Shown here: positions 6,600 through 43,994 of the stretch, in pieces
How positions within the stretch are numbered: position 1 is the stretch's first letter
Layout: each line of letters begins with the position of its first letter
The notes under the pieces: generated by a model
The model's input: only the letters and a program-made list of their open reading frames with translations
Told to the model about the DNA's origin: nothing
Databases searched by the model: none
Made by a program: the position numbers and the translations under genes
NCBI GenBank assembly: GCA_038250905.1
Contig: JBBSBV010000026.1
Location: 310-64,309 of the forward strand
Length of the DNA stretch: 64,000 nucleotides
Origin: Acidimicrobiia bacterium
GTDB taxonomy: Bacteria; Actinomycetota; Acidimicrobiia; IMCC26256; JAENVU01
Direction: 5' to 3'

Positions 6600-9110
6600 T
6601 CAAATCGGTGTGGGGGCGTACTCGTCGGGCGCTTCGCCCTCGGGGCGAGGCTTGACGAGTCCACGCGACACCCAGTTGTGCTGGTCGGCCCAGACGAGCA
6701 TCGGCGGCAGCACGACGAGTGCACTCAGTAGCGCGACCGCCACGTTGACGGCCACGATGATGCCGAAGTCCCGCAGCAGTGGCAGCGAGGATGTGGCGAT
6801 GACCGCGACCCCGGAGATGGCCGTGAGGGCGGAGACGATGAACGCGCGTCCCGTGCGCGCGGCCGCCACGTCGACCGCTTCTTTGGGACTCAACCCTCGT
6901 CGTCGTTCCTCGACGAACCGCAGCAGGATCAGCGAGGTGAACTCCGTACACGCCGCGACCACCAAGGGACCACCGACGGCCGTCATCGGGCTGAGGGTGA
7001 AGCCGGCGAAGTAGGCGAAGAGCGACGCGACACCCACCGCGATCATCACCGGCACCAACGACAGGAGCGATCGGATGACCGAACGCAGCCGGACGGTGAG
7101 GAACAGGAAGACGAAGCCGATCGAGAGGTAGGTGAGCAGAATCCGATTCGCCTCGAGGTTGTCGAGGAGCCCGACACCCACGACCGCGAGGCCGGATGGC
7201 GTGGCACGGATCCCGGCGGGCGGCTGTACGCGCTTGCGGATCTCCTTCACCACGACCGCTCGTTTCGCCAGCGATGCCGGGGTGGTCGCGAAGATCAGGT
7301 TGACCGCCTTCCCGTCCTTACTCACGGTGGAGCTGCGGATCCCCGCGGGCGCAACGTCGAAGACCCGCTTCACCTCGGCCCCGGTGGGCACCACCGGCTG
7401 GGTCCCCGGTACTTCGGTGAGGAAGCTGACGATGCTGACGATGCTCGAGGCATTGGCCAGCACCCGCTTCTGCGGGCCGATGGCCTTGGCGTCAGCCGGA
7501 CACTGCTGTCCGGCGCGCTTCGCGTCGCCGTAGCGACACAGCTGTTCGGCCGTGAAGTCGTCGACGAACTTCACGGTCTGGTTCGAGAACGCGTGGCCCG
7601 AGACCACGTACATCCCGAGCTCGCTCGAGATACCCGCCTGGTGTTCGATCTCGTGGATGTTGCGCACCGCGGTGGACGACGGGCTCACCCACGCGATGGG
7701 GTCGGTCTGGATCTCGAGTTTGTTTTCCACCAGTACCCCACCGACGAAGACGACCAGCGCGGCCCCGACGAGCACGGGCGCGACCTTCGACGACATGCCG
7801 CCGAAAAAGACGACGAGGCGACCGAGCGGGCCCTCGCGGTAGTCACGGGACTGGGTCGGTGACCGGTACTCCCGAATTCCGAGCGCCGAGAGCGTGCCCA
7901 TGATGGACACGAAACAGATCGCGGCAACGCCCACCGCGAGCAGGAGCCCGAAGCTGCGAATCATCGGCACCTTCGAGAACCGCAGGGCGGCGAAGGCGAA
8001 GATCGCGTCGAAGGTCACGACGATCAGTGCGGGTCCGAGGTTGCGGGCGGTCTCCTGGATCGGATGGGCCGAGTGGTCGATGATCACCTCCTCCTCGATC
8101 CGGGCGTGCATCTGGATCGAGTAGTCGATGCCGATCCCGAGCATCACCGGCAGGCCGCTGATGGTGACGAGCGTCAAGGGGATACCGAGATACCCGGCCA
8201 GACCGAACGCCCAGACCACACCGATCAACACGATGCCGAGTGGCAACAGCCGCCACCGGACGTTGAACAGCACCAGCAGGATCACGATCATGATCGCGAC
8301 CGCGATGCCCCCGAGCAGCAGCATTCCGCCCTTGAGGTACTTGTTGATGTCGTTGAGCAGCACCGCCGCGCCACCGGTCACGATCTTCGCGTTCGGGAAC
8401 GAGACCGGCTTCATGGTCGCGATCGTGTAATCGGCACCGCGACCTTCCTGCTCGATCGACGCGTTGCCTTGCAGTCGCGTGATGATCAACGCGTGACGCT
8501 GGTCCGGGAAGAACGGCAACAACGCCTTACGGACTTCACCCTGGTTGTCGATGAGGAGGAACTTGACCCAGTCCGGGTTCGCGAGCGTCTGATCGGCGCA
8601 CGGGACGGCGTTCACGCGTTCCAGGGTCTTGGTCGCGTCGGTGAACCGAGCTGCCTGCTCGGCCTGAGGCGCGCGGGCCTGGGCCGCGAGGATCAACTCG
8701 CCGGCGATGCTCTTCGTGGGGTCGCAGGTCTTGCTCGAGACGAGGTTGTTCGACAGCTGCAACGCGTCGACCGGCGTGATCACACCCAGGATGTCCTTGC
8801 GGTCCATCGCCAGTTGCTTGCCGATGGCCTGGAGCTTGGCGCGGTTCCGGTCGTTCAGGAGTTCGTCGACCGTGTGGCCTTTGTCCATCGAGATGACGGT
8901 GAGCATCGCCTCGCCGCCGAACAACTTCTGATACGCGACGTTGTCCTTGTAGACCTGGTCGGTCGTGTTCAGGTACGCGTCCTGGCCGGAGGTGAACTTC
9001 AGCTGCGTGATCCCGGCGCCGAGCGAGAGCGTGATCAGGAGTCCGACGATCGAAACGACACCTGCCCGCTTTCCGAGGTTGACTGCCAACCAGGACCAGA
9101 ACCGATGCAT
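6600..9110 (-). CDS. RND/MMPL family transporter (HAE3-like)
   Basis: Two repeats of 1 TM + large loop + 5 TM; GIGIDYSI motif. Confidence 0.9.
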   Translation of the reverse strand: MHRFWSWLAVNLGKRAGVVSIVGLLITLSLGAGITQLKFTSGQDAYLNTTDQVYKDNVAYQKLFGGEAMLTVISMDKGHTVDELLNDRNRAKLQAIGKQLAMDRKDILGVITPVDALQLSNNLVSSKTCDPTKSIAGELILAAQARAPQAEQAARFTDATKTLERVNAVPCADQTLANPDWVKFLLIDNQGEVRKALLPFFPDQRHALIITRLQGNASIEQEGRGADYTIATMKPVSFPNAKIVTGGAAVLLNDINKYLKGGMLLLGGIAVAIMIVILLVLFNVRWRLLPLGIVLIGVVWAFGLAGYLGIPLTLVTISGLPVMLGIGIDYSIQMHARIEEEVIIDHSAHPIQETARNLGPALIVVTFDAIFAFAALRFSKVPMIRSFGLLLAVGVAAICFVSIMGTLSALGIREYRSPTQSRDYREGPLGRLVVFFGGMSSKVAPVLVGAALVVFVGGVLVENKLEIQTDPIAWVSPSSTAVRNIHEIEHQAGISSELGMYVVSGHAFSNQTVKFVDDFTAEQLCRYGDAKRAGQQCPADAKAIGPQKRVLANASSIVSIVSFLTEVPGTQPVVPTGAEVKRVFDVAPAGIRSSTVSKDGKAVNLIFATTPASLAKRAVVVKEIRKRVQPPAGIRATPSGLAVVGVGLLDNLEANRILLTYLSIGFVFLFLTVRLRSVIRSLLSLVPVMIAVGVASLFAYFAGFTLSPMTAVGGPLVVAACTEFTSLILLRFVEERRRGLSPKEAVDVAAARTGRAFIVSALTAISGVAVIATSSLPLLRDFGIIVAVNVAVALLSALVVLPPMLVWADQHNWVSRGLVKPRPEGEAPDEYAPTPI

Positions 9111-9242
9111 TGAGCCTCCCCAGGTGAAGGCCGGAGGCTACCGGTGCCACATCTCCACCGACAGAGGCCTTGGTCCGTGCACGAACCCTCCGCTGATCGC
9201 GGGCGGCAGCCGTTACACTGCTCCTCGCCCGGAAGGACACGA

Positions 9243-9316
9243 GCGCTCGTAGCTCAGTTGGATAGAGCAGCGGACTTCTAATCCGCCGGTCGGAGGTTCG
9301 AATCCTCCCGGGCGCG
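9243..9316 (+). tRNA. tRNA-Arg(TCT)
   Basis: GCGGA-CT-TCT-AA-TCCGC anticodon arm; GGTTCGAATCC T-arm. Confidence 0.95.
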
Positions 9317-9377
9317 CGAGAGATCAGCAAGACGGGGCACCGTCGTGCGTGCTCGGTTGCTCCGGCGACCGATTCTT

Positions 9378-9455
9378 GGTGGCCGTAGCTCAGTTGGCTA
9401 GAGCGCCGGGTTGTGATCCCGGAGGTCGGGGGTTCGAAACCCCTCGGTCACCCCA
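9378..9455 (+). tRNA. tRNA-His(GTG)
   Basis: G-1 present; CCGGG-TT-GTG-AT-CCCGG; encoded CCA. Confidence 0.95.
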
Positions 9456-9590
9456 CTGTTCGCGACGCCTGGCGTCGCGCGGGCGAATGCGACGAAGAGG
9501 AAGGCCGCGAACACCGTCAGGTGATGCGCAGCCTGTAACACCGTCGCTCCACGAGTGCGCCGAGAGCGCAATGAGCGCTACGTTGCGGCC

Positions 9591-12581
9591 GTGCCGCGGT
9601 ACGACGCGTTCATCTCGTATAGCCACGCCGCGGACGGCAGGCTGGCGCCAGAACTCCAGACCGGCCTCCAGCGGTTGGCGAAACCGTGGAACCGACGGCG
9701 GGCGCTCGAGGTGTTCCGCGACCAGACCGGCCTCGCGGTCACGCCACATCTCTGGGATGAGATCGTCGACGCCCTCGACACCGCGGAATGGTTCGTGCTG
9801 CTCGCCTCCCCCGACTCAGCAGGATCCGAATGGGTCGGCAAGGAGATCACGCACTGGCTCGAACGCCCGAACGCGCGGGACCGGATCCTGCCCGTCCTCA
9901 CGGACGGCGTTTGGGACTGGGCCGAAACCGGCGGATTCACTCCGGAGTGCACCGCCGTCAATCCGGCGCTCCACGACGCGTTCACCGACGAGCCGTTCTT
10001 CCTCGATCTCACCTGGGCGAAATCGGCAGAACACCTCGATCTCGGCAATCCGCAGTTTCGCGACTCGATCGCGGCCCTGGCCGGGCAGATGCACGGCAAA
10101 TCTCCGGATGAACTCATCGGTGCCGACGTCCAACAGTTCAAGCTGGCGCGCCGGCTCCGGCGGGCTGCGGTCATCGGTCTCGCGACGCTGACCGTCGCCG
10201 CGCTCTTCGCCACCGGGATCGCCGTGAGCCAGCGCAACAAGGCCGACCGGAGCGCGGCGCAATCCCGGTCGCGGGAACTCGCGGCCCTGGCGCGCAGCAA
10301 GATCGATGACGACCCCGGGCTCGCATCGATCCTCGCCGTCGAGGCGAACTACCCGAACGGTGCAACGAAACCGATCGACGTTCCGGACGCGCGCATGACG
10401 CTCGGCGTCACACTGCGGAAACGGCAGTGGGCTGCGTTCACCCGCGTCGGTCCGCAGATCACCGCGCGGGCTACCCACATCGTCACCGAAGACTCGCGCC
10501 ACGTCGCGACGATGGACTACGGCACGTGCACGTGCCGCATTTCGTGGTGGGACGCCCACACGGGCCAACCCGTGCCGCGACCCGTTTCCGCGGCCGTGGA
10601 AAAGAGGTTGACGGAGCCCTTCGGAACCAGCACGGGCGGGGTGAGCTTCGCCAGGCAGAACCCCCCGTCCTTCGGCGACTTCCCGATCACCGTGCCGTTT
10701 ACCGTCGATCAGTCCAGCGGCATGCTCATCGGCATGGACCCGGCCACCACCGGCGATCTCGTCGTTCAGCCGGCGGCCGGCGGTCCCGTGGTGAGCCGGT
10801 TGCGCGGATCACCAGGCGCGCAGCTCGCGTTGGTGACGGCACTGCCGTCGGGTCAGGTGGTGGCGGTGAGCACGACCGGCGACTTGTACGAGTGGTCGCG
10901 CACCGCCGGCGGCGCCGCCCGGCGAATCGCGTACACACCGCCCGTCGGGAACACCGTGCAGTCGATCGCGCCGGCAGCAGACAATCGGATCGTCGTCGAA
11001 TCCGTCGCCGTGCCCACGGGGTACCGGACGCTCCCGTGCGCGCGCGTCTGCATCGACAATTCGACCGTGACGTCCGACGTGCCGCCATTCTCCTTCCTCG
11101 GATCCCAGATCACCGCACCCCACGCCGACGTAATCGACATCAGCGACGCGTCACAGCCGAAGGTGGTCCGGACGTTCACCGACGCCGCGGTGACCGTGCC
11201 GGGGAGCGACGCGGTCTCTCCGGCGTCGACTTCGGTGCACCGGTACCTCGCGGCCCGTTCTATCGGGCAGGACGCGTTCGGCGACGCCGAGGTCGACGTG
11301 TGGGACATCGATGCCGGGCGACTCATCGCGGCCATTCCCCGTCTCCGACCGACCGACCTCCGGTGGCTCGACCCGACGACCCTCGCCGTCGTCTCGGCAC
11401 GCGGCGTCGAGAACCTCCGGCTCAATGTGCCGCCAGTCCTCGATACCACCACCGTGGACCTCGCTCGGTCCACCACCGGCGACATCACCGCGATCCTGCC
11501 CTCCACCCCCGCCGCCACTCCGGCGCGGTACGAGCCATCCGGCTCGGGGCGGCCCGCCCGCCTCGTCCCCGAGGTCGATCCCGCGACGCTGACCTATGGC
11601 GGCAGCTCTCCCGGTCGCCTCTCGCTCAGTCCCGACGGCCGGGTCGGGAGCTTCGTCCTCGACAAGGCCGTGGACCCGGTCACCGGGTCCAACGGATGCG
11701 TGTCCATCGGCGCGTACTGCGCCCCGCCGTCGTCGGTGCAGGTCGAGAAGCTCGTGGGCCACACCAAGGTGGCGTCGTTCCCGGGCGGGACGACGGCCGC
11801 ATTCGACCCGACGGGTCGGTGGCTGGCTGTCGGAAGGCACCACGACATCCAGATTGCCGACACCCGAACGTGGCACGTCGCGCAAACGCGGAACATCCCC
11901 GACATCCTGCCGAACCAGATCGTGTGGGCGCCTGACGGCGCCGACCTCTTCGTCCGCGGCCAGGATGCCAGCCAGACCTTCCTCACCGTCTCCGTCAACC
12001 GCGCGACCGGTCGGTCCCGGGCTTTCCCCACCGCGGGAGACGGCGTGGGACTCGCGGTGTCGCCCGACGGTCGCACGATCGCCACCACCGGGGACGGTGG
12101 GACGGTCACGTTGTGGGCGCGCACCGGATCGAGCGTCGGCCGCGTCCCGCTGTCGACGTTCACCGCCGATGCCGGATCGATCAGTGGCCTGGCGTTCAGC
12201 CCCGATGGCGCGCGGCTGGTCACGAGTGGTGAGACGACGACCGCCATGTGGGACCTCTCGGACCGGACCAACCCCGCGAGGCTCGACGTCCTCACCAAGC
12301 TCCCCGCGCTGGCTCGGGTCCACGAACGCTCGACCACGGGAGATGCTGCTCGCGCTCGATGGGGACTGGTCGCGTTCAACCCCAACGGTCGATCACTCCT
12401 CCTGGCCGGACCCACGGGCGTGGTCGAGCTCGCCGACTTCGACCCTGCACTCGCGTGCTCGCTCGCGACCCCCGCCGACCTCGCCGCCGCCGAACGGGCG
12501 CTGCGGGCGGCATCGGCGTGCACGCGCGTGCCCGAGCTGCGACGAGCGCGACACGCCAGGGCCGGACCCAGGCAGACCTGA
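9591..12581 (+). CDS. TIR domain - transmembrane helix - WD40/beta-propeller protein
   Basis: YDAFISYSH...EVFRD...LASPDSAGSEWVGKEI (TIR); TM AAVIGLATLTVAALFATGIAV; repeats LAFSPDG/AFDPTG/VWD; TACGTT-N6-GTG supports start 9591. Confidence 0.85.
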   Translation: MPRYDAFISYSHAADGRLAPELQTGLQRLAKPWNRRRALEVFRDQTGLAVTPHLWDEIVDALDTAEWFVLLASPDSAGSEWVGKEITHWLERPNARDRILPVLTDGVWDWAETGGFTPECTAVNPALHDAFTDEPFFLDLTWAKSAEHLDLGNPQFRDSIAALAGQMHGKSPDELIGADVQQFKLARRLRRAAVIGLATLTVAALFATGIAVSQRNKADRSAAQSRSRELAALARSKIDDDPGLASILAVEANYPNGATKPIDVPDARMTLGVTLRKRQWAAFTRVGPQITARATHIVTEDSRHVATMDYGTCTCRISWWDAHTGQPVPRPVSAAVEKRLTEPFGTSTGGVSFARQNPPSFGDFPITVPFTVDQSSGMLIGMDPATTGDLVVQPAAGGPVVSRLRGSPGAQLALVTALPSGQVVAVSTTGDLYEWSRTAGGAARRIAYTPPVGNTVQSIAPAADNRIVVESVAVPTGYRTLPCARVCIDNSTVTSDVPPFSFLGSQITAPHADVIDISDASQPKVVRTFTDAAVTVPGSDAVSPASTSVHRYLAARSIGQDAFGDAEVDVWDIDAGRLIAAIPRLRPTDLRWLDPTTLAVVSARGVENLRLNVPPVLDTTTVDLARSTTGDITAILPSTPAATPARYEPSGSGRPARLVPEVDPATLTYGGSSPGRLSLSPDGRVGSFVLDKAVDPVTGSNGCVSIGAYCAPPSSVQVEKLVGHTKVASFPGGTTAAFDPTGRWLAVGRHHDIQIADTRTWHVAQTRNIPDILPNQIVWAPDGADLFVRGQDASQTFLTVSVNRATGRSRAFPTAGDGVGLAVSPDGRTIATTGDGGTVTLWARTGSSVGRVPLSTFTADAGSISGLAFSPDGARLVTSGETTTAMWDLSDRTNPARLDVLTKLPALARVHERSTTGDAARARWGLVAFNPNGRSLLLAGPTGVVELADFDPALACSLATPADLAAAERALRAASACTRVPELRRARHARAGPRQT

Positions 12582-12607
12582 CACCCGTTCCACTAGCTTC
12601 ACCGGCC

Positions 12608-14155
12608 ATGCAGGGTGACGGCCCGACCACGGAAATCACCGACATCGGTAAATCGCTCGCAAACGGCACCCCCGACCAGATCAATCACGCGGTCGACCAG
12701 CTCCTCGCTCGCTTGCGCCGCGACGGCGACGCCGCCGAGGCGATCGCAGCCGGCGAAGCGCTCCAGTCCGCTCGCCGCTTCGATGCCCTTCTCAAGCTGG
12801 CGGACGCGGCGGCGCGCATCGCAGGTCCCGAGCAGTCGGCCGAGCTGTGGCTGCTCGCGATCACGGGACTGATCGAGCTGGAGGCATCGCTCACCGCCGA
12901 GCGGCTCGTCAAGTCGCTCCTCGCCGAGCCGGCCATGACGCCGTTCCGCCCGCGGTTGCTCGCACGGCTGGGCCGCATCAAGAAGGACCAGTACGTCGAT
13001 TCCGGTGAACCCGCCGCGCTCGAGCAAGCGATCGACGCCTACGTCGACGCCTACACCGCCGGCGCCGACCCGTTGTGGGTCGGCGTCAACGCCGTCGCAC
13101 TCCGGGCGCTCGCCACACGTCGGGGCTTCCCGGCCGACCACGCGGCGCCGGTACCGTTGGAGCACCTCTTCGAGCTCGCGACCTCGGCGCCGATGCCCCG
13201 GCCGGCATGGTCCATCACGACCGAGCTCGAGCTCCGCATGGCGCGGGGCGAGCCGGCCGCCGCCCTGGGGCCTCTCCTGGTCCAGCTGTTCGGCGCGCCC
13301 GATGCCACCGGTTTCGTCTACGCGAGCCTCGCCCGCCAGCTCGCCGAAATCTGGGAGCTCGATGCGGCCGATCCGCTCATGGTGATGCTCGGCGAGAAGA
13401 CGCTCGCCAGCGGCCAGGGTGAGGTGAAGCTCCCGACCACCGCCGCGGACTACGAGAGCCTCTTCGGGGCGGAGACGCCGATCGGGATCGAGAACTACCT
13501 GAAGGGCGCCGGCTGCGCCTGTGCGGTCGGCGCATTGCTGCATCCGAGCCGGGGCCTTCGGGGCACGGTGTTCGCCGTGGAGGGCGCCAACCTGCACTCG
13601 TCGCTCGCCGGTCGCGTCGTCTTGATCACGAACGAGCACGTGGTTCCCGACCCCGAACACCACGACGCACCCGGAGCCGACGAGCTGACGGCGCACTTCG
13701 TCGCGGCCAAGATCGGGCCCAACGAAGCGCTGAGCGAGTTGTCGTTCGGCGCGCTGCGCACGATCTGGCAGTCGCCGCGCGAGAAGCTCGACGTGAGCTT
13801 GCTGATTTCGGACGATCCCGCGGTCGCGCAGTTGAGCGGTCTCGCCCCGCCTGAGCCCGGCAAGCTACCCGAGGTGTTCCCCGGCGCGTTCGTGTATGTG
13901 ATCGGACACCCGAGCGGCGGCGATCTGGCGCTCTCGATACGCGGCAACGACCTGATCGAGATCGCTGACGACAACATCCGCATCCACTACAAAGCGCCCA
14001 CCCAGCCGGGGAGTTCGGGCAGCCCGGTCTTCAACGAGTCGTGGGAACTGATCGGCGTGCACCACATGGGCGCCCCGACGTGCCCGCCCGGGAACGAAGG
14101 CATCGCACTCCAGGCCATCCGCGCCGAACTCGTGGCGCGACCACCGAAGCTGTGA
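12608..14155 (+). CDS. Helical-repeat (DUF4071/TRAF-binding-like) domain + trypsin-like serine protease
   Basis: Triad TNEHV / KLDVS / TQPGSSGSP; LIGVHH; N-terminal LGRIKKD...AIDAY...WVGVNA; TAGCTT -10 just upstream of ATG. Confidence 0.85.
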   Translation: MQGDGPTTEITDIGKSLANGTPDQINHAVDQLLARLRRDGDAAEAIAAGEALQSARRFDALLKLADAAARIAGPEQSAELWLLAITGLIELEASLTAERLVKSLLAEPAMTPFRPRLLARLGRIKKDQYVDSGEPAALEQAIDAYVDAYTAGADPLWVGVNAVALRALATRRGFPADHAAPVPLEHLFELATSAPMPRPAWSITTELELRMARGEPAAALGPLLVQLFGAPDATGFVYASLARQLAEIWELDAADPLMVMLGEKTLASGQGEVKLPTTAADYESLFGAETPIGIENYLKGAGCACAVGALLHPSRGLRGTVFAVEGANLHSSLAGRVVLITNEHVVPDPEHHDAPGADELTAHFVAAKIGPNEALSELSFGALRTIWQSPREKLDVSLLISDDPAVAQLSGLAPPEPGKLPEVFPGAFVYVIGHPSGGDLALSIRGNDLIEIADDNIRIHYKAPTQPGSSGSPVFNESWELIGVHHMGAPTCPPGNEGIALQAIRAELVARPPKL

Positions 14156-14162
14156 GGTACGC

Positions 14163-16820
14163 ATGGGCATCCTGACGGACCGCAAGGTCAGCGCCGGCCG
14201 CGTGAAGGCCATCGTGTTCGGCCCGATTGGCGACGCGTTGCGCAACCACCTCGTGACCCTCGCCTACGTGGACATGGGCAAGGAGATGTCCGAGCTGCTC
14301 GGCCCCGACGACGCCAACTGGACGTGTCTCGCGGTGTGGCCCTCCTTCACCGTCGGCGAAACGATCCGCGCCACCGGCGACCCGCTCGGACTGAAGCGGA
14401 TGCTGGGCCGCGCGCAGAGCGACCCGTTGGGTCTCGCTCGCGAGAAGGCCACCGGGCGCCTCCTGCGCGGCCGCACCTCGGACGGTCGGGTATTGAACCG
14501 CAGCCTCGCGGCCGGCAACCGCGGCGTGTTCTTCGAGATCGGACTCTGCTGGGCCGACTTCCTCGCGACGTTCGCGCACAAGACCCTCACCGACGCCGAG
14601 GAGCTCTCCGAGTTCCAGAAGTTCGCCGAACGCATCGACCGGGTTCCGCTGCCGCCGGGCAAGCTGTGGCCGGACGGCAACCGTGAGCAGCTCAAGAAGG
14701 GCTTCGCGGCGTACCTCGAGGCGATGAGCTGTACCGATCCGAAACGCAAGGCCGAGCTGATCCTGCTCGGCAACATCTGCATGGGCGACCACGAACAGCG
14801 CCGGCTCCAGGGGTGGCTCGACCTCTCACTCCTCGAACCCATACGTATCGTGGCCAAGCCGATCCGCAACCTCGGTGCGGGTCGATTCGTGGGCCGCGTC
14901 GAGACTGCCTGGTCGCTTGTGATGACGCGCAAGGTGTTCGTCGTGAAGATGGACAAGGAGACCATCCGTGTCGGTCGTCCCGTGGCACTGACCGCCGGTC
15001 AGTACCCCGCACCGCTCGACACGCTCGACGCGCCCGAGGCGGTCGCGGAATACCTGCGTGTCGTGAATGCCGGAGGTGGCGCCGCGACCGGAGCGCACCA
15101 CTGGAACGACTTCCCCGACCGGATGAGCTTCATCGCGTCGCTGTTCCGTGCCAAGCAGCGGTCGGGCCTCGTCGGCATCAGCCCGTACACCCCCGAACAG
15201 GAAGCGCAGATCTGGGCCGAGGCCGCGGCGGTCGAAGCCAAGGACGCGGCGTTCTTCGAAGAGTTCGAAGGCGCACTCTTGTTCCCCAAGGCCGAGACAT
15301 CGCCCTGGTCGATCGAGGTCATGCAGGACCTCGTCGTGCGACTCGACGCCGGGCGGCGACGGTGCGACCCACCGATCGACGATGCGATCGAACAGTTCTA
15401 CCGAGGCACGGGAATCCCTCGTACCGATCGGCACTTCACCGACGTGTTGATGGCGATCGCGGATCCGAGTAGCCAACCGGACAACCCCGTGACCGCGTTC
15501 CTCCACGAGGCACCGGTGCTGCCGAAGTGGGCCGACCTCGAACGGATCAAGCGCGCGCAGGCCTTCTTCCAGACGTTCCGGCCGTCGATCCACGCATCGC
15601 TCTTCTTCGGATCGATGTTCCTCGGCTACGCGGCGGGCAACGGAGTGCAGGTGCTCGCGTTGGTGAGCGATCTCACGAACTCACCGGAGCGACGCATCTG
15701 GGAATCGACCCGGTTCGTCGAGGACATCTGCACCACGCCGTTCTGGGAGCAAGACAGCGCCGGGTGGAAGTCGTTGCGGGGCGTGCGGGTGTACCACGGC
15801 TCGATGCGGGCGATGATCGAGTCCGGCAGCCAGCACATCAAGCCGATCGCCGAGTACCCCACCGATCGCGTGTGGGATGCCGCCTGGGGCCGGCCGATCA
15901 ATCAGGAAGACATGTTCGGCTACTGCCTCACGATGGCGGTGCCCACGATCGAGAACCTCGATCGAATGGGTGCGGCGATCGATCCCGAGCAAGCCCTCGA
16001 CTGGTTGCATCTCTGGAACGTGATCGGCGTCCTGATGGGCGTCGAGGAGTCCTGGGTCATCAGCCCGCTCGACCCGACCCGGGACTTGTCGCTCGAAGAG
16101 GCTCGGTGCGCGCTCGACATCATCCTGACCCGCAACGTGAAACCCACCCCGCAGGGGCGCCAACTCACGCAGACGCTGCTCGAGCAGATCGGCTGGTTTC
16201 CCGGCCCGCTCCAGCGGGTCGCGCGCACGTTCATCCGTTCGTCCATCGGCGATCGCAACGCCGACATGCTCGGCGTCCCCCAGCGCGGACTGCTCGAGCC
16301 CGCGTTGTCGGGCATGCAGAACGTGTTCCGCACATTGCGTCAGAACGGCGCCTACTCGGCCGGGTCCCGGAAACTCACCGAGTGGCTCGGCAGCGAGTTC
16401 CTCGACTGGTGGCATCAGCAGTACAAGGACACGCCACCGTACCGGCAGGGCGGTACCGCGGCCATCGCGGCGCGCGCCCCCGATCCGAGCACGCGCGCAC
16501 CGCGCCAGATCTCGATCACGATCGACTCGACCGGCGAGCTCCCGCCCGAGGTCACCGCCGCCATCTCGGCCGTCAAGGACGTCGACGTGGTCCAACAGCC
16601 GCAGACCAACTTCTACGAGAGCCTCGACATGCAGACACTGCTGAAGGGCACCGTGCTCCCAGGCCCTGCGGTGGGTGCCCTGGTCAGCGCCGTCGTCGCG
16701 TCCACCAAGGGGGTCGCCTCGGTGCGCCAGGTGACGCTCACGATCGACGGGCGCGACGTCGCGCTCACGACGCTGTCCGACGAAGAAGTGAACCTACTGC
16801 TCCCCGAACTGACCGCGTAG
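14163..16820 (+). CDS. Fusion: uncharacterised N-terminal domain + MpaB/Lcp (DUF2236)-like heme oxygenase domain + small C-terminal domain
   Basis: RRIWEST, VRVYHGSMR (RxxH), WGRPINQEDM, WLHLWNVIGVLMGV typical of MpaB/Lcp family; GAGG RBS, 7 nt after protease stop. Confidence 0.8.
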   Translation: MGILTDRKVSAGRVKAIVFGPIGDALRNHLVTLAYVDMGKEMSELLGPDDANWTCLAVWPSFTVGETIRATGDPLGLKRMLGRAQSDPLGLAREKATGRLLRGRTSDGRVLNRSLAAGNRGVFFEIGLCWADFLATFAHKTLTDAEELSEFQKFAERIDRVPLPPGKLWPDGNREQLKKGFAAYLEAMSCTDPKRKAELILLGNICMGDHEQRRLQGWLDLSLLEPIRIVAKPIRNLGAGRFVGRVETAWSLVMTRKVFVVKMDKETIRVGRPVALTAGQYPAPLDTLDAPEAVAEYLRVVNAGGGAATGAHHWNDFPDRMSFIASLFRAKQRSGLVGISPYTPEQEAQIWAEAAAVEAKDAAFFEEFEGALLFPKAETSPWSIEVMQDLVVRLDAGRRRCDPPIDDAIEQFYRGTGIPRTDRHFTDVLMAIADPSSQPDNPVTAFLHEAPVLPKWADLERIKRAQAFFQTFRPSIHASLFFGSMFLGYAAGNGVQVLALVSDLTNSPERRIWESTRFVEDICTTPFWEQDSAGWKSLRGVRVYHGSMRAMIESGSQHIKPIAEYPTDRVWDAAWGRPINQEDMFGYCLTMAVPTIENLDRMGAAIDPEQALDWLHLWNVIGVLMGVEESWVISPLDPTRDLSLEEARCALDIILTRNVKPTPQGRQLTQTLLEQIGWFPGPLQRVARTFIRSSIGDRNADMLGVPQRGLLEPALSGMQNVFRTLRQNGAYSAGSRKLTEWLGSEFLDWWHQQYKDTPPYRQGGTAAIAARAPDPSTRAPRQISITIDSTGELPPEVTAAISAVKDVDVVQQPQTNFYESLDMQTLLKGTVLPGPAVGALVSAVVASTKGVASVRQVTLTIDGRDVALTTLSDEEVNLLLPELTA

Positions 16821-16831
16821 GTCGCACACGC

Positions 16832-19531
16832 TCACCCGGCGATCGCGATCGCCAATCGGTCGCGGGCAGTCCGCATCGCTTCCGCCTGGTCGAGACCCTC
16901 CGCCCGGTCTTCCCAACGTCGCATCTGATCCTCGCCGACACTCAGGCGGAGCTTGTCGAACGCGGCGGCGAGATCCTCGGTATCGGCGGGCAAGAGCGGC
17001 AGCGCAAACTCCGCCGCCGACGCCGCATGGTTCAGTACGACGGCGGTCTCGAAGTCGCCGGCATCGGCAAGGCACAGCGCGGCCTGGCGCAAGGCCGACC
17101 AGAGGTGCGACCGATGCCCTGCTCGCTCCCACGTATCGAGCAGCGCGAGCACCATCGTCATCGCGTCGCGCAGGGATCCGTGACGGCGGCGGACCGATGC
17201 CAGGCGCGTCGTGCACAATGCTTCGATCCAGTGATTCTCCACCGAGCGGGCTCGGGCAAGACTGTCGTCGAACAGTGCCTCCGCGTACTCGACGTCAACG
17301 AGTTCGGTGGCAACCGCCCGGCCGAACAGTGCCCACGCGATCGTGGACGGATTCTCCGATTCGCGCGCACTGGCAACCGCCCGGTTCGCGAGATCGAGCG
17401 CCGCCGCGCCGCGCCCGGCGAAGCTGCGACCCAGCGACCGTACGACGTCGACGTTCGTCTGCCAATACGGGTTGGCCGAGTCGCTCGACAGCTCGATGAC
17501 CTCCGCCATCACGGAGCGCACGTCTGACACGGCTCCGCCGTACTCCGCCGAGTTCAGGAGTGCGAGACGAGCGGGGAGGGACCGCGGCGCACCCAGTACC
17601 CGTTCCAGGCGCAGCGACTCCGATGCGAACTGCTCCGCCTTCAGCGGGCTCTCGCGAATCCAGCCCCCCAACGCCACGATCCCGAGCACCATTGCCCGGT
17701 CGGGGTTGTCCGGCGCCGCGGCGACACACGCCGCCTCGCCCCAGTCGAAGATCTCCGACCGCATCCGCATGAACGCGTAGTCCCAGAGCGAGGCAACAAT
17801 CCGCAACGCGGCATCGGCATCGCCGGCGTTGATCGCTCGCGCGTGGGCCGTCCGAAGATTGTCGAAGTCGAGCTCGATCTGCACGACGCATCGTGCCTCG
17901 TCCGGGCCGCGGAGCGAGGTGCCCGCGGCTTCCGCCACGCCCACGTAGTGGCGCACGAACCCGGCGTGCACGGTTGCCCGGTCGGATGCGTCGAGGCGTG
18001 CATCCGCATAGGCGCGGACCGGCTCGAGCAGGCGGAAGCGCGTCCGTTCTCGCCGAGTCTCCGACGTGAGGAGCGACCGATCGACCAGGCCGCGCAGGAG
18101 TTCCAGTACCCGGGAACTGTCGAGATGCGGCGACACGACCGCCGCGAACGCGGCGCGGTCGAACGAACCGGGCAGGACTGAGCACCGGACGAAGGCCTCA
18201 CGGAGCATCGGCTCGAGGCGATTGAAGGTGAGATCGAGTGCGTCTTCGACCGAGCGGTGCCGGGTGAGGCCGCGGCTCGACGTCGGCAGGTCACCGGCCC
18301 GGACGGCTTCGAGAATGTCGGCGAGTGACAGCGACGACGCATTCGACGCTGCGACTTCGATCGCCAACGGCACTCCGGCCACCGCCCGACATACGTCGCG
18401 CGCCAGCGCTCGCGTGCGCGCATCATCGACCAGGTCGGCACCCGCGGCTCGAGCGCGCTCGATGAACAGCTCGACACTGTCGTCGGCGGCGACCTCGGCG
18501 CGCAACGGCTGCAACATCGTCACGTGCTCGCCGGGCACGCCCAGAGGCTCGCGACTGGTTGCCAACAGGTGGCAGCGCGGCGCGTCCAGGGATACCGCGA
18601 GTGCGAGTTCGGCCACCGATTCCGTCGCTTCCTCGCAGTTGTCGAGGATGAGCAACAGCTCCCTGTCGCGCAGCCATTCGACCACGCTCTCCTCGGCGCT
18701 GCGCAGGGTCCTCCGTTCGACGCCGAGCGCCTTCCCGAGGGCCACACCCACCTGCGACGCCAGAACACCGGAGAACTCGCACATCACCACGCCGTCGGCG
18801 AACCGGTCTTGGACACCTGACGCCGCCTCCACCGCCAGGCGGGTCTTTCCGACCCCGGCCAGACCGACCAACGTGACCAACCGATGCGTGAGCAGTTGCT
18901 CGCGGAGACGCTCGACCTCGGCGGTCCGCCCGACGAAGCTCGTGAGCGATCGCGGGATGGTGGGAACCGCCCGGGTTGCGCCCCGCACCTCGTGGAGGTG
19001 GTCGGGAAGACCCTCGGCCAGCACCGTGTAGACCCGAACCGGCTCGGCAACGTCGCGGAGGTGATGCATCCCCAGATCGAGGAACTCGACTCGCTCCGTC
19101 ATGCTCCGTCCGGCCTCGGACTCCGCAATGCCGGATACGACGATCTGGCCACCGTGGGCCAACGTGTGCAGTCGAGCGGTCGCGTTGAGGGCCCAACCGA
19201 AGAACTCGCCGTCGCGTTCGATGACGTCGCCCGAGTGCACGCCCATGCGTACCAGCAAGGCACCCAGACCCGAAAAGTCGGCGGCCGCGAGCGCCCGCTG
19301 CGCAGCGAGCGCGGCGTCGACCGCCGCGCCTGCGCCGGAGAACACGGCGACGATCCCGTCGCCGGTGTGCTTCACGATGTGTCCACCGACCCCGGTGATG
19401 GCGGTGCGCAACAGGAGGTCGTGCTGTTCGAGTGCGGCCAGCATCGCGTCCGGGAACTGGTCCCACAGGCGCGTGCTCGATTCGATGTCCGTGAAGAGGA
19501 ACGTCCGACGAACAGTCGCTGACGACGGCAT
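16832..19531 (-). CDS. Class III adenylate/guanylate cyclase + STAND (NB-ARC-like) ATPase + TPR-like region
   Basis: FLFTDIESST, KHTGDG, RMGVHSG, LNATARL; Walker A GLAGVGKT; Walker B LLILDNCE; ATSREPL; GVPLAIE. Confidence 0.9.
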   Translation of the reverse strand: MPSSATVRRTFLFTDIESSTRLWDQFPDAMLAALEQHDLLLRTAITGVGGHIVKHTGDGIVAVFSGAGAAVDAALAAQRALAAADFSGLGALLVRMGVHSGDVIERDGEFFGWALNATARLHTLAHGGQIVVSGIAESEAGRSMTERVEFLDLGMHHLRDVAEPVRVYTVLAEGLPDHLHEVRGATRAVPTIPRSLTSFVGRTAEVERLREQLLTHRLVTLVGLAGVGKTRLAVEAASGVQDRFADGVVMCEFSGVLASQVGVALGKALGVERRTLRSAEESVVEWLRDRELLLILDNCEEATESVAELALAVSLDAPRCHLLATSREPLGVPGEHVTMLQPLRAEVAADDSVELFIERARAAGADLVDDARTRALARDVCRAVAGVPLAIEVAASNASSLSLADILEAVRAGDLPTSSRGLTRHRSVEDALDLTFNRLEPMLREAFVRCSVLPGSFDRAAFAAVVSPHLDSSRVLELLRGLVDRSLLTSETRRERTRFRLLEPVRAYADARLDASDRATVHAGFVRHYVGVAEAAGTSLRGPDEARCVVQIELDFDNLRTAHARAINAGDADAALRIVASLWDYAFMRMRSEIFDWGEAACVAAAPDNPDRAMVLGIVALGGWIRESPLKAEQFASESLRLERVLGAPRSLPARLALLNSAEYGGAVSDVRSVMAEVIELSSDSANPYWQTNVDVVRSLGRSFAGRGAAALDLANRAVASARESENPSTIAWALFGRAVATELVDVEYAEALFDDSLARARSVENHWIEALCTTRLASVRRRHGSLRDAMTMVLALLDTWERAGHRSHLWSALRQAALCLADAGDFETAVVLNHAASAAEFALPLLPADTEDLAAAFDKLRLSVGEDQMRRWEDRAEGLDQAEAMRTARDRLAIAIAG

Positions 19532-19588
19532 CGCCGGGGACAGTAGCGCCCGCCCCTGGTACCGGCCTAATACGGCATTCGAACGAGC

Positions 19589-20482
19589 TCAGGCGAGCAG
19601 GGCGGCCAGCGCGACGTCGAGGGTCGGGTGGACGAACGTGTACCCGGACGCGTCGAGTGCCGCGGGCATCACCCGGGCACCCTCCACCAGGAGGTGCTGC
19701 ACCAGCTCGGCGCCATAGACGAGTTTCAGCGGGAGCAGCGGGGTCGGCAACTTGGTCGGCCGGTGGAGAACCTGTCCGAGTGCGTGCGTGAACTCGAGGT
19801 TCGTGACCGGTGCGGGCGCAGTCGCGTTCACCGGTCCCGAGAGGTCGGCGGTGTCGATGGCATGGAGGATCGCGCCGACCTCGTCGGCCAGGGAGATCCA
19901 GCTCATGTATTGACGGCCGCTGGCGATCCGGCCACCGAGACCGAGCTTGAACGGCGTGAGCATGCGGTCCAGGGCACCGCCGTCGGCGCTGAGCACGATC
20001 CCGGTCCGCAGATGCACCGTGCGGATGCCTGCCTCCGAGGCGGCGGCGGTCGCCGCCTCCCACGCGAGGCACACGTTGACGAGGAAGTCGTCGGTCGGCC
20101 CCGGGCCACTCGCTTCGGTGAGCCGCTCGTCACCCCGGTCGCCGTACCAGCCGACGGCACTTCCCGACACCAACACCGACGGCCGGCGTTCCAGTCCGGC
20201 GAGAGTCCCGGCGAGGAGTTCGGTTCCCCGCACGCGACTGTCACGGATCTTGCGCTTCTGTTCGTCGGTCCACTTCTTCTCGCCGATGCCCTCCCCGGCG
20301 AGATGCACCACGGCGTCGAAGCCTTCGAACCCCGCGGAGTCGATGGTCCCGGCCGCCGGATCCCACCGCAGCCCGAGTCCGTTTCCCCGTACGACGGGCA
20401 CGACCCGGTCGCCGCGCTCGTGGAGCGCATTGGCGAGGGCGGTGCCGATCAACCCACTCGATCCGGTGATTGCTACGTCCAT
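19589..20482 (-). CDS. TIGR01777/YfcH-like NAD-dependent epimerase
   Basis: ITGSSGLIG, HLAGEGI, SGSAVGWYG, GLGGRIASGRQYMSWI. Confidence 0.9.
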   Translation of the reverse strand: MDVAITGSSGLIGTALANALHERGDRVVPVVRGNGLGLRWDPAAGTIDSAGFEGFDAVVHLAGEGIGEKKWTDEQKRKIRDSRVRGTELLAGTLAGLERRPSVLVSGSAVGWYGDRGDERLTEASGPGPTDDFLVNVCLAWEAATAAASEAGIRTVHLRTGIVLSADGGALDRMLTPFKLGLGGRIASGRQYMSWISLADEVGAILHAIDTADLSGPVNATAPAPVTNLEFTHALGQVLHRPTKLPTPLLPLKLVYGAELVQHLLVEGARVMPAALDASGYTFVHPTLDVALAALLA

Positions 20483-20562
20483 GACCCCTCCCTCGGTGGC
20501 AGCACGGTATGACCGGGACAACGGTTGGTAGGCATCGAGGTGGACTCCGCTAGATTCATCCC

Positions 20563-20639
20563 GCGCCGCTAGCTCAACTGGTTAGAGCAACAGACTCTTA
20601 ATCTGTAGGTTCTGGGTTCGAGTCCCAGGCGGCGTACCA
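20563..20639 (+). tRNA. tRNA-Lys(CTT)
   Basis: ACAGA-CT-CTT-AA-TCTGT; GGTTCGAGTCC; CCA. Confidence 0.96.
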
Positions 20640-25462: not shown

Positions 25463-26260
25463 ATGGACGCACCGCCGCCAAACCCGAGCGCACCGTTGGA
25501 TCCGTTGGCCTCGTTCCGACTCGACGGCCAGGTCGCCGTCGTCACCGGCGCGAGTGCGGGGCTCGGCGCGCGATTCGCGCGCGTGCTCGACGCCGCCGGC
25601 GCGCGGGTGGTGGTCACGGCGCGCCGGGCCGACCGCCTCGACGAACTCGCGGCCGACCTCACCGATCCGGTGGTGCTCCCGGGAGACATCACCGACCCGG
25701 CCTGGCGGGCGTCGCTGATCGCGACCGTGACCGAACGGGCCGGGCGTATCGACGTGCTGGTGAACAACGCTGGGCGCAGCGAGCCCATGCGGGCTTTCGA
25801 CGAGTCCGTCGACCACTTCCGGGACACGCTCGAGCTGAACCTCGTCGCCCCGTTTGCGATCGCCCAGGCCGCCGCCGCGGCCATGGCGGCCCAGGAAATC
25901 GAGGGCAGCATCGTCAACGTGTCCTCGATCTACGCCCTCGTCGGCATCGGCCGGATCCCGGAGGCCGGCTACTCGGCGTCGAAGGGCGGGCTCACCAGCC
26001 TGACCCGGGAACTCGCGAGCCAGTGGTCGCGGCGCAACATCCGGGTGAATGCGCTCGCCCCGGGCTGGTTTCCCAGTGAGATGACCACCGAGATGTTCAC
26101 CGACGCCCGGCTCGCCGACTGGATCACCGAGAAGACTCCGCTCCGACGGCCCGGCCGGCCCGAGGAGCTCGATGGCGCGCTGCTCTTCCTGGCGAGTGGT
26201 GCGAGCAGCTACATCACCGGGCAGACCCTGGCGGTCGACGGGGGTTGGACCGCCATCTGA
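25463..26260 (+). CDS. SDR family oxidoreductase
   Basis: TGASAGLG, NNAG, YSASK. Confidence 0.92.
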   Translation: MDAPPPNPSAPLDPLASFRLDGQVAVVTGASAGLGARFARVLDAAGARVVVTARRADRLDELAADLTDPVVLPGDITDPAWRASLIATVTERAGRIDVLVNNAGRSEPMRAFDESVDHFRDTLELNLVAPFAIAQAAAAAMAAQEIEGSIVNVSSIYALVGIGRIPEAGYSASKGGLTSLTRELASQWSRRNIRVNALAPGWFPSEMTTEMFTDARLADWITEKTPLRRPGRPEELDGALLFLASGASSYITGQTLAVDGGWTAI

Positions 26261-26273
26261 CCCCTCCCGGGGC

Positions 26274-26300
26274 TCAAGATCGTGCGAATCCGGTCGATGT
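26274..26300 (+). promoter_or_regulatory. Putative sigma28-like promoter
   Basis: TCAA-N15-GTCGATGT, 7 nt before in-frame GTG 26308. Confidence 0.45.
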
Positions 26301-26307
26301 CTCTTCC

Positions 26308-29300: not shown

Positions 29301-29718
29301 GTGCATCGAGATCACCGAAAGTGCCGTCCTCGACGAGGTCGAATCGGCCATCGCGACACTCAACGCCCTGCGCGACATCGGAGTCCGGCTGGCCATCGAC
29401 GACTTCGGCACCGGCTACTCGTCGCTCAGCTACCTCCGCCGACTCCCCGTCGACATCGTGAAGATCGACCGGTCCTTCGTCGCCGAACTCGGCGCGGACG
29501 GCGCCAACGTCACCATCGTCGCCGGGATCATCGGCCTCGCCCGGGGCCTCGGCCTCTCCGTCGTCGCCGAAGGCATCGAGACCGTTCGGCAACTCCAGGT
29601 ACTCCGAGAACTGGGATGCACGCTCGGTCAGGGCTTCCTGTTCTCGGCCCCGGTCGCACTCGACGACCTCCTCGGCATCGATTCCGACCGGTGGTCCACC
29701 GGCCACGTGCGACACTGA
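26308..29718 (+). CDS. PAS-GAF-PAS-PAS-PAS-GGDEF-EAL c-di-GMP cyclase/phosphodiesterase
   Basis: HPDD/RHRDG PAS-PAC motifs; HDPLTGLPNR; RASD I-site + GGDEF; EGL, DDFGTGYSS, VVAEGIET; start uncertain. Confidence 0.93.
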   Translation: MEDGSRSEHAPSADRSLLGLMLEHATDGICLVSREGTVLATTPAIERMIGAAPGTMRGMSGLELLHEDDVLPALDRLNRIGEDVPEDYRTYRFKHREGHYITVELVATENPEPIAEAPTGSLVLTVRDITEWHETQLELAQSQIRRDLVATIASSFVDALDTEIDATLTKTLERLGHHLGADRAYVFRSSPDGTSMHRTHRWSRPGHGFIVDLLVDIPTDAFRPWRERLLANQTIVIDDRTQPDSPDREVELTGGAGITALVAVPLVREGASVGFIGLDVIDRSYTWNRDDALVLRVISDIIGSALARRDAGERSRLAETRFRAMVEHSSDALIVIDRDARINHMPIGANLFGYAPTDLYATNALELVHPDDLEFAATEMIKAVEDPSYHALNAMRIRHADGHWVPIELVASSHFDEPAIDGVIMNVRDVTDRRLVESQLHDSEERMRGLVENLPGAVFRCAASPPFDDEYVSEAIEGLTGYAATEFVSGAVSYDSLIEPSHRASSDIEIARAKQRVGDRQYVVEYPIQHRDGSVRWLSEHGRVIDGRPGEEEMLEGFIFDITSRVEAINETRDSETKLTHLIANIPGTVFRSEATPPYRDIFVSDAIEELTGYSPTAFVAGQLDFYDLIVADQRGNVDEAIARSAQHGNAYSAEYQFRHRDGSLRWVEERGQVAIDPDGTTWIDGTMFDLTERKVLENRLEHDAAHDPLTGLPNRNLLIRHLEATVMRGHRTGTLTAALFVDLDRFKLVNDALGHTAGDELLVHFSRRLLSVLRASDLAARTGGDEFVIVCSDLADAAEAEAVADRVAGLLSNPFTIQGRSVFVSASVGIALADRHDSSASDLLRNADTAAYRAKERGRNRYELFDDALRAATAAALEVETDLHRALDDHQLFLRYQPVVDLEHGSMVGAEGLVRWQHPQRGLLTPDEFLVAAEVSGLVVALGREVLELGVGAMRDVDEDRLPTLAINLSPRELAQPDLIERVRTTLADHGVKPSRLCIEITESAVLDEVESAIATLNALRDIGVRLAIDDFGTGYSSLSYLRRLPVDIVKIDRSFVAELGADGANVTIVAGIIGLARGLGLSVVAEGIETVRQLQVLRELGCTLGQGFLFSAPVALDDLLGIDSDRWSTGHVRH

Positions 29719-43984: not shown

Positions 43985-43994
43985 CTGCCGCAAC

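Follow-up and report, generated by a model that had tools for sequence, protein, structure and literature searches.

Bacterial immune effectors described so far are nucleases, NADases, pores, proteases, and lipases. Among Thoeris systems, a TIR protein is joined by a SLATT protein in type VII and by the tetratricopeptide repeat (TPR)-containing effector ThsI in type VIII, both types signaling via cyclic ADP-ribose, and the effector of type IV is a caspase-like protease that cleaves proteins indiscriminately; the text of the same preprint credits Burroughs and Aravind with the prediction that TPR acts in TIR signaling (10.64898/2025.12.03.692087). In protease-effector modules, latent effectors are activated by adjacent proteases, and the effectors described in the text of Evans et al. 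(PMC12642450) include MBL hydrolase and alpha/beta-hydrolase proteins along with Pepco and EACC1. Here we describe a block of four genes, g1 to g4, in a 64,000-nucleotide stretch of DNA from an Acidimicrobiia bacterium (assembly GCA_038250905.1, contig JBBSBV010000026.1, positions 310 to 64,309; hereafter the window). Our results support the view that the four genes are a real, conserved, horizontally moving unit. The block is made of two modules that also occur alone: a TIR receptor with a TPR-S protease (module 1, g1 and g2) and an MpaB/Lcp-type oxygenase with a cyclase-STAND protein (module 2, g3 and g4). We read it tentatively, with a probability of roughly 0.4, as a mobile immune-type (conflict-type) signaling island of two coupled modules, whose protease would act on g3 or on a partner of g3.

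A conserved and mobile four-gene block

The four genes lie in a 10.1-kb island (window positions 9456 to 19588) between a tRNA-His gene found by ARAGORN (9379 to 9455, plus strand), which bounds the inserted block on the left, and an NAD-epimerase/DUF1731 gene identified with Pfam (19589 to 20521, minus strand). Three of them follow one another on the plus strand in operon-like order: g1 (9591 to 12581, with an alternative start at 9555) encodes a 996-amino-acid protein with a TIR domain, a transmembrane (TM) helix, and a WD40 beta-propeller; g2 (12608 to 14155) encodes a soluble 515-amino-acid protein with a TPR-S domain and a serine protease domain of trypsin-like type; and g3 (14163 to 16820) encodes an N-terminal domain of its own kind (the N-domain), an MpaB/Lcp oxygenase domain, and a C-terminal tail. 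Convergent on them is g4 (16832 to 19531, minus strand), encoding a class III cyclase, an NB-ARC STAND NTPase, and a C-terminal region of about 380 amino acids. An earlier reading of the letters alone, made before any database search (the sequence-only reading), had picked out four large genes packed just after tRNA-His, and the open reading frame (ORF) coordinates and ARAGORN bear this out, the successive gaps being 26, 7, and 11 bp and the g1 start lying 135 bp past tRNA-His. All Pfam domain calls reported below exceed the curated cut-offs. The source genome comprises 4.1 Mb in 76 contigs and is 88.7% complete; the window, with a G+C content of about 69%, lies on the contig that we call C26.

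An alignment of the g3 family led to 19 loci from species-representative genomes and 17 from metagenomes, the contigs coming from metagenome-assembled genomes (MAGs) such as those of Acidimicrobiaceae, Acidimicrobiales, and Ilumatobacteraceae. The clade to which g3 belongs is carried by 23 of these loci; as L048 duplicates L009, and L007 and L023 are one locus split over two contigs of a single MAG, 21 are independent. Genes in them were called by GC3-based ORF choice and tblastn. The sequence-only reading had set out beforehand that its proposal would fall if homologues of the four genes never occurred together in other genomes and neither a phenotype nor an interaction of the proteins was seen; the genes do occur together elsewhere. 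By tblastn, g2 is directly upstream of g3 in 18 of the 20 assessable independent loci (L050 was too short to judge) and is absent within the 10-kb flanks in L015 and L022. Convergence of g4 on g3 was seen in 17 of 18 assessable loci, the exception being L016; L012 was left out of this count, since it has 185 bp downstream of g3. A g1-like TIR gene lies within the fetched flanks in 11/21 loci, with 5 of the 10 negatives being short contigs, and it may point away from g2, run in the same direction as g2 (the window and L047 are examples), or lie past g4. Between g2 and g3, the 11 most divergent loci (g3 39 to 53% identical) hold a gene for a four-TM SLATT_1/DUF4231 protein, which was found neither in the 8 closer loci nor in the window. 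In L016 (4246 to 6921), an 891-amino-acid TIR_2 plus SIR2_2 protein encoded on the same strand as g3 replaces the cyclase-STAND protein.

Gaps from g2 through SLATT, where present, to g3 range from -22 to +53 bp, and the stop-to-stop distance between g3 and g4 is -4 to +55 bp. Order and spacing persist at g3 identities of 39 to 83%; because tight gaps recur over such divergence, the arrangement goes far beyond chance. When the full set of proteins predicted in the 19 genome loci was clustered, no further family proved to be shared except a common short-chain dehydrogenase (SDR) family, present in 7 of them.

The surroundings of the block are not those of its relatives. Six same-genus genomes (L076 to L081) retain the context of the window, with MMPL, tRNA-Arg, tRNA-His, epimerase, tRNA-Lys, and alcohol dehydrogenase genes, and in none of the six did g1 to g4 have a match at the tRNA-His/epimerase site, where the spacing is 0.1 to 1.9 kb. 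DNA homology with these congeners ends about 25 to 30 bp past tRNA-His (query positions 1 to 882 of window 8600 to 9560). Its absence from the site in 6/6 congeners leads us to regard the block as a mobile island. Eight proteins encoded around the block in the window were compared with the 19 genome loci; none of them had a match there, and those loci contain no tRNA gene. A sample of 400 further genomes of the class, which took in 11 from the same genus, yielded no full-length g3 orthologue, the best match being 33% identical and confined to the oxygenase domain. No integrase was found, nor were att-like direct repeats or a GC shift at the island borders. Two sister genomes have other small cargo at the same site, namely, a DUF4386 protein gene (L076, 1727 to 3383, genome G398) and an amidohydrolase gene (L080, 828 to 2724, genome G353), and the site therefore behaves as a variable hot spot.

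On the left, a tRNA-Arg gene (9243 to 9317; ARAGORN) stands just before tRNA-His, and on the right a tRNA-Lys gene (20563 to 20639; ARAGORN) belongs to the flank that starts with the epimerase gene. Farther along the window are a gene for a 1,157-amino-acid PAS/GAF-GGDEF-EAL protein (26245 to 29718) followed by tRNA-Leu, which belongs to the conserved backbone, as tRNA-Leu follows it in congeners too, and a transfer-messenger RNA gene (43633 to 43985) with the tag peptide AEDNLTLAA.

A membrane TIR receptor and a TPR-S protease

The proposed TIR-TM-WD40 architecture of g1 was recovered in full. Pfam places TIR_2 at amino acids 7 to 105 (37.1 bits; cut-off, 28) and WD40 repeats at about 720 to 940 (42.7 bits; cut-off, 27), and a TM scan found one helix at amino acids 194 to 212, preceded by a stretch rich in Arg and followed by an extracytoplasmic part of about 780 amino acids. 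Since this stretch lies on the TIR side and a g1 homologue in L011 ends in PG_binding_1, a peptidoglycan-binding domain, the TIR domain is placed inside the cell and the propeller outside. The Glu of the TIR motif S-x-W-V-x-x-E is kept in 11/11 g1 homologues. The ThsB_TIR model scores 19.6 on g1, below its cut-off of 21.2, and none of the Thoeris models of PADLOC match g1 at an E value of ≤0.01. In the source genome, g1 is the sole TIR_2 match, and neither g1 nor g2 has a paralogue at a tblastn E value of ≤1e-5.

For g2, which had been described as a helical-repeat protein with a trypsin domain, Pfam supplies both parts: TPR-S at amino acids 58 to 165 (41 bits; cut-off, 27.6) and Trypsin_2 at amino acids 338 to 484 (54.7 bits). 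The catalytic residues His344, Asp395, and Ser470 are invariant in 14/14 orthologues. The nearest solved relatives are of the V8/Spl type, that is, staphylococcal glutamyl endopeptidases (E about 2e-6); the earlier label "Glu-protease" has these structures and a JGI label on homologues behind it, and the specificity that it names is putative. The TM scan gave no convincing helix in g2, g3, or g4, the middle parts of g1 and g2 have no useful Pfam match at an E value of ≤10, and for g2, viral contigs returned only generic trypsin-domain matches. The combination of TPR-S and trypsin is widespread, with 233 clusters at an E value of ≤0.001. Such TPR-S plus Trypsin_2 proteins come in sizes of about 520 to 560 and about 899 amino acids and were seen in Mesorhizobium and Actinomycetospora and in Planctomycetota, Acidobacteriota, Vicinamibacterales, and Thermodesulfobacteriota MAGs.

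TPR-S was reportedly defined by Burroughs and Aravind in the Journal of Bacteriology in 2020, and its binding of the TIR product has been predicted by others. We looked at the linkage of the two domains in a sample of 401 genomes of the class, in which TPR-S scored above the cut-off in 39 and TIR_2 in 85; the six-frame search with the TPR-S family (PF20308) missed the window's own g2, which scores 41 bits by hmmscan, so these tallies are lower bounds. When the TPR-S matches were grouped by eye into 40 loci, at least 18 had a TIR_2 match no more than 6 kb away on the same contig, 13 had none, and 9 were unjudged, as 43 TIR_2 matches were not among the matches listed; by our own estimate, about 0.07 loci would be expected by chance. 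The TPR-S proteins beside TIR genes carry a variety of outputs: Trypsin_2 (G297), a cyclase (G216), an esterase (G372), RelA_SpoT with SLOG and RyR (G146), and SARP with cNMP_binding (G396). In G297, lipase and alpha/beta-hydrolase genes come before the TPR-S-trypsin gene and a TIR gene after it, a layout that we take as a precedent for protease-effector logic; here and in G166, the pair stands without g3 or g4. Module 1, together with SLATT where present, is a Thoeris-type variant whose TIR protein is unusual in being receptor-like. In six loci (L096 to L100 and L103, from G396, G288, G381, G285, G238, and G124), two or three g1-like genes stand in tandem, 42 to 53% identical over amino acids 4 to 250.

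An oxygenase with a new helical domain, and its STAND neighbor

The AlphaFold2 (AF2) model of g3, with a mean predicted local distance difference test score (pLDDT) of 80, shows three parts: an all-helical N-domain (amino acids 1 to 370; 14163 to 15272), in which a loop at about amino acids 60 to 111 is disordered and Arg-rich; the MpaB/Lcp-type oxygenase domain (about amino acids 445 to 723; 15495 to 16331), supported by Pfam and Foldseek; and the tail (amino acids 781 to 885; 16503 to 16820), a small alpha/beta domain. This agrees with the earlier description of a domain of no known family, an MpaB/Lcp part, and a tail, for MPAB_Lcp_cat is the single Pfam match, and amino acids 1 to 400 and the last 122 amino acids match no Pfam family even at an E value of ≤10. 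No NCBIfam model matches the N-domain either.

The N-domain is a genuinely new domain, and with it the oxygenase makes a candidate for a new effector class. A profile search returned 1,629 representatives at an E value of ≤0.001, mostly stand-alone proteins of 350 to 430 amino acids, along with fusions to tandem cNMP-binding domains, kinase-STAND, SRPBCC, TIR, and MpaB in either order; a fusion to Caroten_synth is weak. In two genomes, the N-domain and MpaB are encoded by separate adjacent genes, codirectional in one (G268:C3:1668181-1670324) and convergent in the other (G014:C1:2678260-2680383), which supports the idea that the two form a functional pair independent of fusion. Foldseek against the PDB found no confident match for the N-domain fold (best E, 0.37), and the ESM Atlas had no usable match. 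VIA-align returned many terpene-synthase and prenyltransferase rows with a best Z score of 5.5, which is below the meaningful level for helical proteins and serves as a lead only.

MPAB_Lcp_cat matches amino acids 501 to 708 of g3 with 63.4 bits (cut-off, 23). The g3 family profile matches the latex-clearing protein Lcp (5o1m), a rubber oxygenase, with an E value of 1.9e-21, and the fold matches Lcp 5o1l (Foldseek E, 7e-8; TM score, 0.65) and t-anethole oxygenase (E, 0.018). His545 of g3 aligns with the His of the Lcp motif MVHAAVRH and Arg511 with the Arg of RIAKT, both being invariant in 33/33 sequences, and Glu514 occupies the position of the Lys of RIAKT. We take the Lcp residues aligned with His545 and Arg511 to be heme ligands. 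From its family membership, g3 is predicted to bind heme and to cleave C=C bonds oxidatively; the earlier label "heme oxygenase" is a misnomer, as MpaB/Lcp enzymes are heme-dependent C=C-cleaving oxygenases.

In the AF2 model, the tail has the secondary structure b-a-b-b-a-b-b-a, and Foldseek gives weak PII-like rows (E, 0.2; TM score, 0.56). A hidden Markov model (HMM) of the tail matches 21/21 locus rows that hold the g3 C terminus, 0/13 loci of the paralogue type described below, and nothing else in the genome; because it matches rows of the clade only, the tail is specific to this g3 clade. A strict correlation between tail and g2 had been considered, as L015 and L022 seemed tail-less by tblastn, with matches stopping at residues 773 and 778, and was refuted by tail HMM matches with E values of 4e-23 and 7e-7. 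Two predictions of a complex between g2 and the g3 tail (amino acids 765 to 885), both given as alignments, scored 0.00, which is evidence neither way. Viral contigs held no g3 relative. In L019 and L020, at about positions 10980 to 11000, g3 is in two frames with a break near residue 330, which reflects a genuine frameshift or else a mistake in the assembly of long-read MAGs.

The neighboring g4 protein begins with a class III nucleotidyl cyclase domain (amino acids 10 to 181; 18989 to 19504, minus strand; Guanylate_cyc at amino acids 10 to 137, 28.2 bits), for which 3mr7 and Ma1120 are the PDB matches, followed by an NB-ARC STAND NTPase domain (amino acids 204 to 396; 18344 to 18922, minus strand; 37.3 bits; cut-off, 23.5); NCBIfam models match partially only. 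The cyclase motifs F-T-D, G-D-G, and N-x-x-x-R, with the two metal-binding Asp residues, the Asn, and the Arg, and the Walker A motif G-x-G-K-[ST] are kept in 14/14 orthologues, and a Walker B motif was read from the g4 sequence. The residue preceding G-D-G, presumably the base-specifying position, varies among orthologues. The sequence-only reading had called this gene a convergent cyclase-STAND-TPR gene; orientation, cyclase, and NB-ARC were confirmed, and the TPR part was not, as the C-terminal region of about 380 amino acids matches no Pfam TPR family at an E value of ≤0.1. Other STAND proteins encoded in the genome can be aligned with this region, and the name TPR follows from this likeness; we presume the region to be a helical-repeat sensor. 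Pfam found no DNA-binding domain in g4. Many cyclase and STAND paralogues of g4 are present in the genome. The claim that the block is built from immune-type parts is supported, and their catalytic residues (TIR Glu, protease triad, His545 and Arg511 of g3, cyclase and Walker motifs) are intact.

A relative of module 2 occurs elsewhere in the same genome. On C13 (L004, 5337 to 14648), a 782-amino-acid paralogue of g3 with N-domain and MpaB, 27% identical and without a tail, sits between two SARP-BTAD-AAA_16 STAND proteins, the first upstream and codirectional, the second convergent, which repeats the g3/g4 logic with outputs that bind DNA. Thirteen metagenome loci hold this paralogue type (N-domain-MpaB, no tail), and among those with at least 400 bp downstream, a related STAND gene adjoins in 5/8, one of them with a cyclase head. 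Upstream of g3 in L012 (3957 to 7430) is a gene for a 1,157-amino-acid fusion of BTAD (SARP), class III cyclase, and STAND; with both in one protein, it bridges the two output types, cyclase and SARP, found beside N-domain-MpaB genes.

Proposed function and alternatives

If the block is a conflict-type island, its parts might work together as follows. We infer that signaling starts at the cell surface, where the g1 beta-propeller would sense an envelope or outside cue and the cytoplasmic TIR domain would make a messenger derived from NAD; this would be read by the TPR-S domain of g2, which would switch on the trypsin-like domain, and in the divergent island versions the SLATT membrane pore would be a second responder. 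Separately, the STAND domain of g4 would oligomerize on a cytoplasmic trigger of its own and bring the cyclase domains together, yielding a cyclic nucleotide. The active protease may process g3, perhaps within its disordered loop or in the linker that leads to the tail, or else a partner of g3, and the oxygenase so freed would cut an isoprenoid lipid, menaquinone or polyprenyl phosphate for instance, so that growth of the affected cell stops. Proteolytic gating of the oxygenase is plausible in view of the conserved tight adjacency of g2 and g3.

Several observations weigh against such an island. In L015 and L022, g3 (tail included) and g4 stand without a protease, SLATT, or TIR gene within 10 kb, so g3 does not need g2. 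STAND proteins with a SARP DNA-binding output lie beside the paralogue type in C13, L053 to L055, L058, and L063, and these outputs point to gene regulation over cell death. The tandem g1-like genes adjoin a protein with a SARP-like head, which in G396 is a 969-amino-acid Trans_reg_C, BTAD, cNMP_binding, and TPR-S protein, and this suggests a receptor-to-transcription pathway that uses the TIR messenger. No cNMP_binding domain was detected in g1 to g3 by Pfam at an E value of ≤0.1, leaving the block with no reader of the g4 product; fusions of cNMP-binding domains to the N-domain are confined to other proteins. The ThsB proteins known are cytoplasmic, and a TIR receptor that faces outward differs from them. 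PADLOC, as the sequence-only reading had expected of a novel system, has no system model that matches the block, its weak domain matches being PycC (E, 3.6e-7 over 73 amino acids, limited to amino acids 7 to 79 of g4) and RT-protease (E, 2.4e-4). The MpaB/Lcp enzymes that we know of are catabolic or biosynthetic. Finally, all the related loci come from related uncultured bacteria of one class, and their counts are not independent events.

Some of these points lend themselves to a regulatory, nonimmune explanation, which we consider a serious rival and the main one, though less likely than not: g3 would make or remove an isoprenoid-derived molecule, g4 would sense that molecule or g3 and answer with cyclic AMP, and g1 and g2 would provide an outside-in input, the TIR messenger acting through the TPR-S protease to trim a regulator or g3, all for adaptation and not death. 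The pairs of N-domain-MpaB and STAND genes with SARP outputs, the SARP-cyclase-STAND fusion of L012, and the tandem receptors beside a SARP, cNMP_binding, and TPR-S protein favor it, as do the fusions of the N-domain to tandem cNMP-binding domains, to the lipid-binding SRPBCC, and weakly to Caroten_synth. The many cyclase and STAND paralogues are what general signaling would look like, and such faint fold resemblances as the N-domain shows lie mostly with isoprenoid synthase folds (Z, ≤5.5, meaningless alone). However, the insertion is accessory, as 6/6 congeners lack it, and it moves between unrelated contexts, which fits conflict genes better than core regulation; the SLATT pores of 11 loci and the TIR-SIR2 neighbor in L016 are effector-type parts; and there is no DNA-binding output among the four genes of the window. 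Chance or shared ancestry alone as the reason why four unrelated genes are neighbors would gain from the restriction of the loci to one class, since shared descent inflates the counts, but it is highly improbable: the flanks differ in every locus, the block is missing in congeners, and the order is kept down to 39% identity.

That two independent systems travel together without cross-talk seems distinctly unlikely to us. One would be a Thoeris-like TIR/TPR-S-protease system, with or without SLATT, whose protease acts on cell proteins at large, as does the caspase-like effector of type IV Thoeris, and the other would be the oxygenase with its cyclase-STAND protein. Each module does occur alone (TPR-S-trypsin with TIR in G297 and G166, g3 with g4 in L015 and L022), the position and strand of g1 vary among loci, and the text of the Thoeris preprint (10.64898/2025.12.03.692087) gives the cleavage by the type IV protease as indiscriminate. 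Against independence, g2, SLATT where present, and g3 keep to one strand in 18 loci, with gaps close to zero over deep divergence, which is tighter and longer lasting than the usual shuffling in islands, and the loci have no third gene family in common except the SDR family in 7. The earlier proposal of a single new system is upheld in part: the four genes are a conserved unit, but a divisible one, in which a Thoeris-like TIR/TPR-S theme is fused with a separate oxygenase-STAND pair.

The coupled, conflict-type island that we prefer could also be one branch of something larger, a Toll-like outside-in pathway of Acidimicrobiia, which we hold to be improbable. Propeller/TIR receptors would make an NAD-derived messenger for TPR-S proteins whose outputs can be swapped (protease, cyclase, SARP transcription factor, or esterase); in this block, the protease would license an effector of a new class, a heme-dependent oxygenase with a new and widespread helical domain, that cuts essential isoprenoid lipids and kills or arrests the cell, and the cyclase-STAND protein would be a second, cytoplasmic trigger. 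Were the immune reading true, an oxidative lipid-cleaving enzyme would join the immune effectors, bacterial TIR signaling would be drivable by an outward-looking transmembrane receptor with the topology of animal Toll-like receptors, and a large uncharacterized domain family with connections to cNMP-binding, STAND, TIR, and lipid-binding domains would be defined. Should the block be regulatory instead, N-domain-MpaB with a STAND protein of cyclase or SARP output is still an unexplored signaling unit of soil Actinomycetota.

Relation to described systems

Actinobacterial regulators of the cyclase-ATPase-TPR type, such as mycobacterial Rv0386, presumably resemble g4. Like them and the AfsR-type SARP-STAND regulators, g4 combines an effector head with NB-ARC and a long C terminus, here cyclase, and its relatives swap in or add SARP; unlike AfsR-type regulators, it has no DNA-binding domain, stands stop-to-stop with an oxygenase gene, and lies on a mobile island. 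The block differs from Pycsar in that no effector with a cNMP-binding domain was found beside the cyclase, by Pfam at an E value of ≤0.1 in g1 to g3. Lcp (5O1L/5O1M) and MpaB/t-anethole oxygenase (PF09995, formerly DUF2236) share the catalytic domain of g3 by profile and by fold. In contrast to Lcp, however, g3 is cytoplasmic, with neither a signal peptide nor a TM helix, has Glu514 in place of the Lys of RIAKT, and holds its oxygenase between a 370-amino-acid N-domain and a weakly PII-like tail, in a signaling island and not a catabolic cluster.

The pairing of a protease with an MpaB-type oxygenase, which the sequence-only reading did not recognize from described systems, was likewise found neither in PADLOC nor in the literature searched. 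There, nothing linked MpaB/DUF2236 to TIR, defense, phage, or protease-effector modules, and the supplementary tables that accompany the Thoeris preprint (among them Table S1, with its 29 effector types) and the papers by Kaur et al., which lay outside the search, may list TPR-S-trypsin or this architecture. A literature search on "Tetratricopeptide Repeats-Sensor" found nothing. The NTP-dependent conflict systems of Kaur et al. (2020, eLife, PMC7159879; 2021, PMC8195603) share with the island, as far as their article texts go, the use of trypsin, cNMP cyclase, TIR, SLATT, STAND, and WD40 in Actinobacteria, but the island has no vWA-MoxR, GTPase, or effector-associated-domain pairing. The article texts, to which this check was confined and which exclude the source-data tables, contain no MpaB, DUF2236, or "oxygenase."

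The likeness to the protease-effector modules, as the text of Evans et al. (PMC12642450) presents them, lies in a sensor-fused trypsin-like protease directly beside an enzyme of no obvious housekeeping role and in their frequency in Actinobacteria. It ends at the effector, since g3 is an MpaB/Lcp protein with a new N-domain and falls outside the MBL, alpha/beta-hydrolase, Pepco/Trypco, and EACC1 families of that text, it also occurs without a protease, and its cleavage is only proposed. Closest of all are Thoeris types VII, VIII, and IV in the portrayal given by the preprint text (10.64898/2025.12.03.692087), with which the island, known from genes alone, has in common a catalytic-Glu TIR beside an effector with a predicted messenger-sensing TPR-S domain, a SLATT gene in the operon in 11 related loci, and a protease as output. 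Unlike Thoeris as portrayed there, its TIR domain is the head of a membrane receptor of about 1,000 amino acids with an outside beta-propeller and not a small soluble ThsB, its protease is trypsin-like and not caspase-like as in type IV, and the module is joined to an oxygenase and a cyclase-STAND protein.

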